This document shows, piece by piece, positions 24,079 through 25,663 of a stretch of 32,247 bases of DNA. This stretch comes from Clostridiales bacterium (GTDB taxonomy: Bacteria; Bacillota; Clostridia; Oscillospirales; Oscillospiraceae): the NCBI GenBank assembly GCA_012728025.1, contig JAAYFX010000202.1:1-32247 (forward strand), read 5' to 3'. A model generated the notes under the pieces. The model worked only from the letters and a program-made list of their open reading frames with translations, had not been told where the DNA came from and made no database searches. Positions within the stretch are counted from its first letter, which is position 1; every line of letters begins with the position of its first letter. A program made the position numbers and the translations under genes.

Positions 24079-24378
24079 TTAGTTAATGGTCAGAATTTTT
24101 GAAAAGCCCACAGATTCCAATATGGAAAACACCGCCGGTGAAACATTTTTAAGTTCCATGGTAAGCCCCTTTGAAGCCGCTGTCTTTTGCCCGATAAGAA
24201 GGGCACGAAGTCCCGCACTGCTTATGTAAGGCACAGCGGCAAAATCAACCGTTACGGTTTTTGCCGTTTGAAAGGCTTTTAGCAGGGCATCTTGAAGCTG
24301 GGGGCTGGTGTTGGTGTCTATCCGGCCCTCTATGGCCAAAATAGTGTTTGCGCCCTCCTGCGATGTTTTGATAGTCAT
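24079..24378 (-). CDS. Single-domain STAS protein (RsbV/SpoIIAA-like anti-anti-sigma factor)
   Basis: I prefer the ATG at 24378 (AAGGAG upstream), giving 99 aa; I reject the 24474 extension. ILAIEGRIDTNTSPQLQDAL...VDFAAVPYISSAGLRALL carries the conserved phosphorylatable Ser context. Confidence 0.85.
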   Translation of the reverse strand: MTIKTSQEGANTILAIEGRIDTNTSPQLQDALLKAFQTAKTVTVDFAAVPYISSAGLRALLIGQKTAASKGLTMELKNVSPAVFSILESVGFSKILTIN

Positions 24379-24503
24379 ACTTACACGCTCCTTGAATTTA
24401 TTAGCCGTCAAGCCCGAAACCCCTGAGACAAAAGCTTGAAATCGTGGCTTTGGGCATCGGAGATTTAAAAACAATTTATAAAGAAAAGTTTGACCGCATA
24501 TTT

Positions 24504-25592
24504 TTACTGAAGATAGCTGGAACCGCTTAAGGATTGCCCCCCGTCAAGAAGTCCTGCCTGATTTTGCAGAACGGTGCCGTTAAAGTCAAGGTAGGTGAAA
24601 GAGTCAAGGCTGCTGTCTCTGCCGAAGAAAACAATTCGGCAGCGGCTTCTTATGGGCTTAAACTGGTTTATAAAAAACTCAAGACAGGTGCGCAGTCTCT
24701 CGTCTGCCTCTCGGTTTATGAGAATGGAAAAATCATAGGGGGAGCTGCCGTACATATTGGAGTCCTCCTGCTGTTTTGTAAGAAGGTTTCTCTCAACGAT
24801 GTAAAACGGCTCGTCGATAAAAAGCTTTATAACAAGCTCGATGGCGCTTTTTGTGCCCTTTGCCGCCAAAAGTTTTGGAGCGGCCTTCACAACACGGCGC
24901 AGACTGTCCTCATCTGTAAGGCTGCCCTCGGTTTCAATGCCCAGCCATGAGCAGAAAAGCCTTAAAGCGGGAACCGAGGCATAGTCTGGGTCAAGGTAAG
25001 AGGGAAGTTTATCAACAGTTTCCTGAAGTTCATAGTAAAGGCTTGAAAAGACTGACATATAGCGGCTGAAAAAGTCATTTTCCGCCCTGTATACAGCGGG
25101 GAAGGTTTTCGTAAAATTGTCCACTGGGTTGAAAACAGCAAGGTCGGAAATGCTGGCATTTTTGCCCCCTTCCAGACTAAGCCAAAGGTAAAGGTAGCGT
25201 CCGGAAATACCATTAAGCAAAACGTCTTTTGCTCCGTTTGCTTCAAGACCGCCGGCCATGGAGAAAAAGCGCTCTTTAATATCCGCCGTAATATCGGGGT
25301 CTAAAAGAAAATCGTCAATTTTTGTTAAGGTTCCGCTGCGGATAAAAACGGGGTCATCCGAGGCCATTGCCCGCAGGGTAAGGGCCATGTCGCCCTCTGA
25401 CTGAAGTTTAAAGGACAGCCTGCCCCAGTTAAGGCCATTTTCCGCCCCGTCCAGCCCGCCAAGGAAAATATGGCGGACGGAAACCCTGCCGGAGGCCACA
25501 AGGCTGCCCTCCTCCGTAAGGTCAAAGCCCCGCATCAGACTTCGTGAGAGACGGTTTTTCCCAAAGCTGTATTTTTTTATTATACCAGACAT
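24504..25592 (-). CDS. Phage tail protein I-like baseplate protein (P2 gpI/T4 gp7-like, Afp12-type domain)
   Basis: FPAVYRAENDFFSRYMSVF...LPSYLDPDYASVPALRLFCSWLGIE...AAKGTKSAIELVIKLF matches the Tail_P2_I pattern from memory. AAGGTGG RBS upstream. It is the last structural gene of the baseplate row. Confidence 0.7.
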   Translation of the reverse strand: MSGIIKKYSFGKNRLSRSLMRGFDLTEEGSLVASGRVSVRHIFLGGLDGAENGLNWGRLSFKLQSEGDMALTLRAMASDDPVFIRSGTLTKIDDFLLDPDITADIKERFFSMAGGLEANGAKDVLLNGISGRYLYLWLSLEGGKNASISDLAVFNPVDNFTKTFPAVYRAENDFFSRYMSVFSSLYYELQETVDKLPSYLDPDYASVPALRLFCSWLGIETEGSLTDEDSLRRVVKAAPKLLAAKGTKSAIELVIKLFIDEPFYIVERNLLTKQQEDSNMYGSSPYDFSILINREADERLRTCLEFFINQFKPIRSRCRIVFFGRDSSLDSFTYLDFNGTVLQNQAGLLDGGQSLSGSSYLQ

Positions 25593-25663
25593 AACACACC
25601 ACCTTAAAAGGAGCCGGCGCTAAAAAGGTTTCTTGCGGCATTTGTGGTTGCTGCAAGGCCTTT

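Follow-up and report, generated by a model that had tools for sequence, protein, structure and literature searches.

Contig JAAYFX010000202.1 (the window, the complete contig of 32,247 bp) carries the distal half of a contractile injection system (CIS) locus whose lineage is widespread in anaerobic Clostridia (Oscillospiraceae, Lachnospiraceae and Eubacterium). The baseplate operon of this locus ends with a gene for a 99-aa STAS protein, which is predicted to serve as the phospho-switch in a partner-switching cassette within the CIS locus. The explanation favoured here, with moderate confidence, is that of a fibre-less Clostridial CIS lineage in which the STAS partner switch couples an external signal to CIS activity. 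The original prediction had regarded the STAS gene merely as the next gene after the baseplate row; that it belongs to a conserved partner-switching cassette was missed.

The CIS content of the window begins at ~11 kb, and the locus runs off the contig end at 32247. The upstream half (cap, sheath, tube and tape measure) lies outside the window and was therefore studied only in relatives. Related loci, designated by L numbers, were pooled from look-ups of homologues of the gpI-like wedge protein, a scan of one genome per species and a metagenome scan. This resulted in 113 unique gpI loci, of which 89 extend at least 350 nt and 29 at least 8 kb downstream of gpI (the latter termed long loci).

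The STAS gene and its partner-switching cassette

The genes of the baseplate operon are encoded on the minus strand in the order spike, gp25, two Cis11/Baseplate_J paralogues, Cis12/gpI-like protein (gpI in the following) and STAS. The cassette partners of STAS are encoded immediately downstream on the opposite strand (18.5-23.9 kb).

~32212-32247 (contig end), minus strand: hub gene, last ~12 codons only (from the translation)
31322-32143, minus strand: spike with gp5/VgrG OB-fold, 273 aa (Pfam Phage_base_V, 6.8e-21)
30824-31243, minus strand: gp25-like sheath initiator/wedge protein, 139 aa (Pfam GPW_gp25, 1.3e-16)
27808-30861, minus strand: Cis11/gp6-like wedge protein, paralogue A, 1017 aa (PDB and NCBIfam matches)
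25664-27790, minus strand: Cis11/gp6-like wedge protein, paralogue B, 708 aa (Pfam Baseplate_J, 1.6e-7)
24504-25592, minus strand: Cis12/P2 gpI-like wedge protein, 362 aa (Pfam Tail_P2_I, 1.8e-5)
24379-24503, minus strand: gpI-STAS spacer, 125 nt, with an AAGGAG ribosome-binding site
24079-24378, minus strand: STAS protein of the anti-sigma-factor-antagonist type, 99 aa (Pfam STAS, 1.1e-16, and STAS_2; TIGR00377 above cut-off)
23974-24013, between the convergent STAS and RsbW-like genes: hairpin terminator, 14-bp G+C-rich stem, U run on the minus strand
23526-23948, plus strand: RsbW/SpoIIAB-like serine kinase, 140 aa (Pfam HATPase_c_2, 5.5e-24)
21252-23438, plus strand: sensor phosphatase with the architecture transmembrane segment (TM)-dCache-TM-HAMP-PP2C (SpoIIE, 3e-49; dCache_1, 1.4e-23; HAMP, 5.8e-13)
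20189-21286, plus strand: 365-aa protein with a weak N-terminal GNAT signature (Pfam Acetyltransf_1, 0.0099)
18537-20135, plus strand: MatE (MATE/MOP) transporter with a C-terminal RsbW-like domain (MatE, 4.3e-20; HATPase_c_2, 2.1e-6)

The end of the operon is arranged as the original prediction had described it, with gpI, a spacer of 125 nt, the 99-aa STAS gene and a terminator on the minus strand, in agreement with Pfam, NCBIfam, the ribosome-binding site and RNA folding. A mechanical open reading frame (ORF) call starts the STAS gene at a TTG codon at 24474 and yields 131 aa; since all homologues are ~99 aa long and the AAGGAG motif is located 9 nt upstream of the ATG at 24378, the shorter protein and the 125-nt spacer are considered correct. 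STAS is the last gene of the operon; since the spacer has no significant or terminator-like structure (fold z +0.36), STAS most likely shares a transcript with the baseplate genes. The terminator is strong: its 126-nt region folds with -36.2 kcal/mol (z -5.3; 0 of 200 shuffled sequences fold as well), and a weaker A/U-rich hairpin is located at 24041-24063. The hairpin at 23974-24013 was detected by folding; a simple terminator scan missed it because its loop is long.

Across the relatives, a STAS gene is found directly after gpI on the same strand and within 250 nt in 74 of the 89 loci (83%), at a distance of 17-137 nt. This adjacency is far beyond chance and holds down to ~31% gpI identity. 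It is seen in Oscillospiraceae, Lachnospiraceae, Eubacterium, Flavonifractor, Pseudoflavonifractor and Oscillibacter, and cultured carriers include Oscillibacter valericigenes An890, Pseudoflavonifractor phocaeensis An507 and Lachnospiraceae bacterium XBB2008. The adjacency also survives different layouts of the cassette, which may be convergent (window, L001 and L003), co-directional (L004, L076 and L124) or reduced (L062 and L063). The phosphorylatable serine of the window's STAS protein is the fourth residue of Y-I-S-S-A-G-L. All 23 aligned STAS sequences have the corresponding motif, Y[IV][SA]S[AS]GL, which aligns with the DSAGL motif of TM1442 and its phosphorylatable serine (PDB 4hyl and 1sbo alignments).

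The window thus holds the three parts of a partner switch, namely a STAS protein with a phosphorylatable serine, a HATPase_c_2 kinase and a PP2C phosphatase. In the RsbW-like kinase the N, G1 and G2 boxes are all intact in a motif alignment with a SpoIIAB reference sequence, and NCBIfam matches to RsbW and SpoIIAB are below their cut-offs. The sensor phosphatase probably starts at a methionine at 21315, and two hydrophobic blocks flank its extracytoplasmic dCache domain; the best NCBIfam match, again below cut-off, is the biofilm phosphatase SiaA. The domain fused to the MatE transporter differs from an active kinase in that the catalytic Asn is replaced by Ser, Leu or Ile and the Asp of G1 by Asn or Ser in 16/16 CIS-type members. 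It looks like a STAS receptor that is unable to phosphorylate, i.e. a pseudokinase. Such MatE-HATPase_c_2 fusions are rare: a search of a collection of 5.8 billion proteins returned 36 clusters at the sensitivity used. Between transporter and phosphatase, the 365-aa protein yields only weak acetyltransferase matches when its profile is compared with PDB, and it is kept in L001, L003, L004, L072, L076, L079 and L124.

The composition of the cassette varies. Among the 29 long loci, STAS is present in 27, an RsbW-like kinase in 20, a PP2C phosphatase in 15 and a MatE-HATPase_c_2 fusion in 7, and an FtsE-like ABC ATPase directly follows STAS in 18. The enzyme is exchanged among CIS loci for non-homologous equivalents (the GNAT-like 365-aa protein, a GH3 amido synthetase or LPG_synthase_C; the 365-aa protein has no similarity to the LPG_synthase_C protein of L006), and the transporter may be MatE, EamA or a 968-aa MFS fusion. 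Replacements of this kind are located at L092:11569-13200, L083:12463-15369 and L006:14525-16373. The cassette may thus include the synthesis and export of a small amide-linked metabolite, which is possibly the ligand of dCache.

Several further observations were made around the slot after gpI. The commonest layout, of the Lachnospiraceae type, consists of STAS, a 212-254-aa ABC ATPase without an adjacent permease, and an RsbW-like kinase. This ATPase is closest to FtsE (5e-64, below cut-off; L004:11482-12132, L062:11439-12089 and many of L071-L144). In L067 (11486-13825), L070 (11410-13902) and L069, a 780-830-aa protein with C-terminal SLH repeats, a cell-wall-anchored protein inside a CIS locus, is encoded between STAS and the RsbW-like kinase. 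In loci without STAS after gpI, the slot is occupied by a small unrelated protein (Family XIII), a GTPase of the dynamin family, a Reg_prop/HD-GYP protein, or a GNAT protein together with an uncharacterised protein. The 98-aa Family XIII protein was considered as a STAS candidate and rejected, as it has no Pfam match and a low-complexity sequence. The dynamin-family GTPase (Dynamin_N, 2.9e-18), a membrane-remodelling protein, directly follows gpI in a distant Oscillospiraceae branch (L052:19151-20521 and the same position in L053). Links to cyclic di-GMP were seen in the Reg_prop and HD-GYP protein in the slot at L141:2131-5595, in a GGDEF protein between the kinase and phosphatase genes at L003:11977-13167, and in the SiaA match, below cut-off, of the window's phosphatase.

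The baseplate wedge and the missing fibre gene

Of the genes of an extracellular CIS (eCIS), the window has the baseplate core, with a spike, a gp25-like protein, Baseplate_J-like proteins and a gpI/Afp12-like protein, and the AAA+ ATPase. The spike is the first complete baseplate gene of the window and is syntenic in all relatives. The closest structural reference for the wedge is the CIS of Streptomyces coelicolor (CIS-Sc, PDB 9GTP; eLife 2025, PMC12237407), which is cytoplasmic and fibre-less and has a wedge of two Cis11 and one Cis12. Paralogue A matches its Cis11 (9gtp_1K) with 4.4e-15 and the AlgoCIS protein 7aeb_G with 0.02, and TIGR02243 with 1.7e-26, below cut-off; it has no Pfam match, and its N-terminal ~700 aa match nothing. 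Paralogue B matches 9gtp_1K with 9.5e-19 and TIGR02243 with 9.5e-31, also below cut-off. For gpI, NCBIfam TIGR02242 is above cut-off, CIS12_fam matches in part, and Cis12 (9gtp_E) is matched by sequence (4.3e-5) and by Foldseek (3.6e-6). In the AlphaFold2 model of gpI (pLDDT 79.6), residues 1-155 form a confidently predicted jelly-roll beta-sandwich at the N-terminus and residues 160-325 the helical Tail_P2_I domain; the C-terminal tail is conserved and predicted to be disordered. The Foldseek matches of the model are phage wedge proteins and 9gtp_A. Exact-sequence look-ups of the window's spike and gpI proteins returned no match.

No fibre-like ORF is present in the window. As the original prediction had stated for 13-24.5 kb, annotation and composition of the ORFs in this region reveal no fibre, and its contents are the AAA+ ATPase, the GNAT protein, a 503-aa protein, the MatE-HATPase_c_2 fusion, the GNAT-like 365-aa protein, the dCache-HAMP-SpoIIE phosphatase and the RsbW-like kinase. 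The search beyond position 32247, which the original prediction had proposed, was carried out on relatives. Two of the loci, L007 and L001, belong to the same Oscillospiraceae chromosome and jointly span 30 kb, with a gpI that is 58% identical to that of the window. The locus starts with a 115-aa protein, a Pvc16-type cap (Pvc16_N), a 255-aa protein, a PAAR-like DUF4280 protein and the sheath (Phage_sheath_1). These are followed by a gp19-type tube (T4_gp19), a 137-aa protein and a tube-domain protein with a long Ala/Lys/Glu-rich region, and the locus ends with a 908-aa tape-measure-like protein, two CIS_tube initiators, a GPD-like hub, the baseplate row, gpI and STAS. No recognisable fibre gene was found in this complete syntenic locus. 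Likewise, none of the 89 related loci has a fibre in the slot after gpI, although the eBAP hidden Markov models of PMC12923769 were not applied here and a very divergent fibre is possible. Taken together, the lineage appears to be one without a separate recognisable fibre gene.

A number of proteins were considered as hidden fibres and rejected. In outgroup loci with a large ORF after gpI, the slot encodes a dynamin-family GTPase or a Reg_prop/HD-GYP protein, or else a GNAT protein accompanied by an uncharacterised protein. No fibre domains were found in the variable proteins upstream of the cap (115-842 aa), in the 908-aa tape-measure-like protein, or in the 1027-aa tube-domain protein of L012, the only one with a long extension that was sampled. 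The tube-domain protein is itself variable: a gp19-like tube domain (~165 aa) is followed by a C-terminal extension of 0 to ~860 aa that differs by species, such that the whole protein measures 150-1027 aa. Its gene is located just upstream of the tape-measure-like gene (e.g. L007:5336-7240 and L012:3855-6938), and in the 634-aa L007 homologue the extension is long and Ala/Lys/Glu-rich. The 255-aa protein, which is conserved between the cap and PAAR genes in relatives (L007:1088-1855, P0128), is predicted to be all-beta with three beta-sandwich domains (pLDDT 88.6); its matches are generic Ig-like tandem domains only, with TM-scores of at most 0.29. Among the proteins of the L007/L001 locus it was the best candidate for a hidden fibre.

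The first alternative to be weighed is an ordinary extracellular CIS that is released by lysis and binds its target via the gpI jelly-roll, the 255-aa protein or both, with the STAS cassette acting as a regulator of transcription or expression level only. In its favour, gpI is considerably longer than the Streptomyces Cis12 (362 versus 190 aa), and the additional 155 residues form the confident beta-sandwich, the nearest folds of which are jelly rolls that bind ligands or carbohydrates (similar to the Eph ligand-binding domain or to carbohydrate-binding modules). Either this domain or the conserved three-beta-sandwich protein between cap and PAAR could, as modelled, act as a cryptic module for binding. 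Furthermore, eCIS that combine Tail_P2_I adaptors with eBAP3 fibres are known from Bacillota (PMC12923769). Moreover, unrecognised and unannotated fibres are common in eCIS loci in general, and the absence of a fibre is for this reason weak evidence on the mode of action. On the other hand, the TM-scores are low (at most 0.45 for the N-terminal domain of gpI, at most 0.29 for the 255-aa protein), with no specific homology to a receptor-binding protein found, and no lysis genes were seen in the CIS part of the window. The nearest solved relative is the cytoplasmic CIS-Sc, and the fibre slot is consistently occupied by signalling or membrane-related genes. An extracellular CIS is therefore regarded as unlikely, yet it is the strongest of the alternatives.

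The original prediction had further proposed a non-canonical, possibly cytoplasmic CIS. The fibre-less lineage and the wedge, which is nearest to that of CIS-Sc, speak for the first part; action in the cytoplasm is plausible by analogy with Streptomyces. Self-anchoring in the manner of thylakoid CIS (tCIS) is ruled out, because a Kyte-Doolittle scan found no TM segment in any baseplate protein.

Proposed coupling of the partner switch to the CIS

In the favoured explanation, the RsbW-like kinase would hold STAS in a phosphorylated, inactive state. An external cue sensed by dCache would activate the PP2C phosphatase, and the dephosphorylated STAS would be free to bind receptors of the HATPase_c_2 type, namely the soluble kinase and the pseudokinase domain of the membrane-bound MatE transporter. 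An extracellular signal and a membrane export step could thereby be coupled to CIS activity (assembly, membrane engagement or firing). Joint production with the baseplate would make the amount of STAS track CIS production. The output could be transcription, assembly, or docking of the baseplate to the membrane. Most likely, although this is the least certain step, the machine would work without fibres and, like that of Streptomyces, from within the producer or at the producer's membrane.

A number of points weigh against this explanation. The related loci share ancestry, such that counts like 74/89 do not represent independent events. The Family XIII clade (L005, L030 and L037) has no STAS after gpI, and L005, the only Family XIII locus read further downstream, has no PP2C or RsbW-like gene. 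Cytoplasmic action is deduced only from the missing fibre gene and the homology to CIS-Sc, and a missing fibre annotation is common among eCIS. Contact of STAS with CIS proteins is a proposal. The C-terminal tail of gpI, considered as a docking motif for STAS, was rejected, as it is equally conserved in loci without STAS and its conservation does not track STAS presence. Neither the window nor the relatives' loci examined yielded a sigma-factor gene or another output target. The MatE gene of the window is frameshifted at its 5' end (~18370-18536) relative to its homologues, as seen by tblastn and in the sequence. The frame shifts at ~18417-18422 near an AAA run, and the longest intact ORF, which starts at 18537, is shorter by ~57 residues at the N-terminus, with the first TM helix missing; an error in the assembly or a genuine pseudogene may account for this. 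Finally, a distant form of the cassette (STAS, a MatE fusion with 24-26% identity and a SpoIIE-kinase fusion) is found in non-ribosomal peptide synthetase (NRPS) clusters without a CIS, so the primary job of the cassette may be the control of the exporter.

A more specific variant assigns the STAS protein a structural role, as a physical adaptor that replaces the fibre in a phosphorylation-gated manner. Unphosphorylated STAS, produced in stoichiometric amounts with the wedge, would bridge the baseplate to the dead RsbW-like domain of MatE or, in Lachnospiraceae-type loci, to the ABC ATPase. Such cue-gated membrane docking would be a two-part analogue of CisA or of TssK and the membrane complex of the type VI secretion system (T6SS). 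The cue sensed by the dCache-PP2C phosphatase would time engagement or firing, and the cassette enzyme and exporter might make this cue in an autoinducer-like loop. The slot of STAS is equivalent to that of cisA and of fibres, STAS is probably co-expressed with the wedge proteins, and the RsbW-like domain fused to MatE is catalytically dead yet conserved, as would be expected of a pure STAS receptor. In addition, membrane contact requires a partner, as the baseplate proteins have no TM segment. However, the contact between STAS and baseplate is purely hypothetical, the tail motif of gpI is independent of STAS, the MatE-HATPase_c_2 fusion occurs in only 7 of the 29 long loci, and the cassette is also found in a CIS-free context. 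A fibre replacement of this type is thus judged improbable.

Slightly more doubtful still is a cassette that is independent of the CIS, i.e. one that controls a small-molecule exporter (MatE; MFS or EamA elsewhere) together with a biosynthetic enzyme and was captured in the CIS island. The NRPS clusters (L064:2469-11758 and L065:2463-13728) provide the main argument for it. They encode STAS, a dimodular NRPS (C-A-T-C-A-T-reductase) and a MatE-HATPase_c_2 fusion, the kinase domain of which keeps the catalytic Asn and Asp; a HAMP-SpoIIE-HATPase_c_2 protein is present only in L065. These clusters suggest that gut anaerobes export an NRPS product under the control of a partner switch. The replacement of enzyme and transporter by non-homologous equivalents in CIS loci likewise points to a function in metabolite export. 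Against this, STAS stays at the end of the baseplate operon in 74 of the 89 loci even if the transporter, enzyme and phosphatase are missing or differently arranged. Moreover, the STAS gene of the window, L001 and L003 is located apart from the kinase operon and inside the structural operon of the CIS, an arrangement that is atypical for partner switches and suggests selection for co-expression with the baseplate. A prophage tail or R-type tailocin, finally, is ruled out by the AAA+ ATPase, the Pvc16-type cap and CIS_tube genes of the relatives, the lack of a fibre gene and the lack of a gpI relative in IMG/VR.

If the favoured explanation holds, the partner switch is a candidate answer to the question of when and where fibre-less cytoplasmic CIS fire; in Streptomyces, only CisA is known and its signal is not. 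The sensor phosphatase, the kinase and a STAS gene in the baseplate operon form a compact and widely conserved candidate control in abundant gut and rumen anaerobes, and the cultured carrier strains permit direct testing. Should the cassette regulate only the exporter, a fibre-less Clostridial CIS family with unusual accessory genes would still remain.

Flanking genes and comparison with known systems

The remaining genes of the window are located upstream of the cassette:

1-9815, plus strand: ethanolamine-utilisation microcompartment genes (EutN, PduS/RnfC-like flavoprotein, BMC, EutH, EutQ)
1-9815, plus strand: cobinamide salvage genes (CobU, histidine phosphatase) and a B12-type ABC importer
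11053-12114, minus strand: histidine kinase, part of a two-component system (Pfam)
12332-13012, plus strand: OmpR-type response regulator, directly upstream of the AAA+ ATPase gene (Pfam)
13025-15328, plus strand: AAA+ ATPase with winged-helix domain (WHD), Afp15/Cis15-like, 767 aa (Pfam AAA, 5.6e-27; WHD, 1.3e-4)
15683-16534, minus strand: GNAT-family protein, 283 aa (weak Pfam GNAT-family matches)
16547-18058, minus strand: 503-aa protein, candidate cargo or effector (from its position and neighbours)

The ordinary chromosomal genes of the first 9.8 kb mark the boundary of the CIS island. The AAA+ ATPase gene is kept in the loci of relatives, and the order response regulator, ATPase, histidine kinase recurs in L005. 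Some loci encode two different AAA+ ATPases (e.g. L062:12759-15080 and 17240-19486); one of them lacks the winged helix and is preceded by an ORF of ~75 aa, and the other is a WHD-AAA protein like that of the window. An Rfam scan of 12-32 kb found no riboswitch or other RNA element.

The 503-aa protein has no Pfam or NCBIfam match and is of a non-repetitive, Glu/Leu/Ala/Arg-rich composition. Its gene adjoins the GNAT gene also in L001 and L003, and L116 has four tandem copies of the 503-aa family. The 283-aa GNAT gene, which is found in 10 of the 29 long loci, adjoins a variable candidate effector: the constant ~283-aa protein is paired with the 503-aa protein here, with a 560-aa Ntox11 toxin at the same position in L006 (16967-19543), and with proteins of 740-1041 aa elsewhere (e.g. 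L135:3606-6685). The pair resembles a conserved accessory or immunity-like protein with a variable cargo or effector. A relationship of the 503-aa protein to Ntox11 was rejected, as it has no sequence similarity to the L006 toxin.

In the literature searched, no paper was found in which a CIS is connected with partner switching or with an anti-sigma factor antagonist, nor one that describes this large Oscillospiraceae/Lachnospiraceae CIS lineage. The system shares with CIS-Sc the monoderm host, the lack of a fibre gene and the AAA+ ATPase in the locus. The wedges are homologous, with genes for two Cis11 homologues and one Cis12 homologue here, and in both systems the baseplate genes are directly followed by an accessory gene that does not encode a fibre. 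In CIS-Sc this gene is cisA, which encodes the bitopic membrane adaptor CisA (PMC12237407). Here, in contrast, it encodes a soluble 99-aa STAS protein, and the only membrane proteins nearby are the dCache-PP2C phosphatase and MatE. Whereas CIS-Sc uses one 652-aa Cis11 protein twice, the present locus encodes two diverged Cis11 paralogues of 1017 and 708 aa. It also differs by the additional N-terminal jelly-roll of gpI and by containing a full partner-switching cassette, a MatE fusion and a two-component system.

With eCIS of the Afp/PVC/MAC type and with the Bacillota Tail_P2_I/eBAP3 eCIS (PMC12923769; PMC8213781), the system shares the core of spike, gp25, Baseplate_J, Tail_P2_I and AAA+ proteins in the window, and the sheath, tube, Pvc16-like cap, PAAR and CIS_tube initiators in the loci of relatives. 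Fibre genes are located downstream of Tail_P2_I in ~90% of the fibre-bearing loci, and in Bacillota and Actinobacteriota the eBAP3 fibres, encoded right after the Tail_P2_I protein, are proposed to attach to it (PMC12923769). In the window, a signalling protein is found downstream of Tail_P2_I instead of a gene for a fibre or a baseplate-anchoring domain. Unlike in thylakoid or membrane-anchored CIS, no membrane-anchoring extension of Cis11 was found, as judged from the lack of TM segments.

The cassette resembles the RsbU-RsbV-RsbW and SpoIIE-SpoIIAA-SpoIIAB modules in its STAS protein with a phosphorylatable serine, its HATPase_c_2 kinase with N, G1 and G2 boxes and its PP2C phosphatase. It differs from them in that the locus has no sigma factor, the STAS gene is part of a structural operon and separate from the kinase gene, MatE carries a second, catalytically dead RsbW-like domain, and the phosphatase has an extracytoplasmic dCache domain. 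MlaB-MlaF is an example of a STAS protein that regulates an ABC ATPase. The STAS protein and FtsE-like ABC ATPase of the commonest layout recall this pair, which serves as a lead only, as Mla components are absent and an RsbW-like kinase usually follows.

Control of secretion machines by phospho-switches is known from BtrU/V/W in the type III secretion locus of Bordetella and from PpkA/PppA/Fha1 acting on the H1-T6SS of P. aeruginosa. According to the account of Mercer and Lang (2014) given in PMC11150451, the RbaV/W/Y partner switch of Rhodobacter acts on RcGTA. The cassette shares with the Btr, PpkA/PppA and Rba systems the genetic linkage of a phospho-switch module to a nanomachine or phage-derived particle. 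Those systems are outside the eCIS/CIS-Sc lineage, and in contrast to all of them, the present locus has a STAS gene in the fibre slot and a transporter-pseudokinase fusion.

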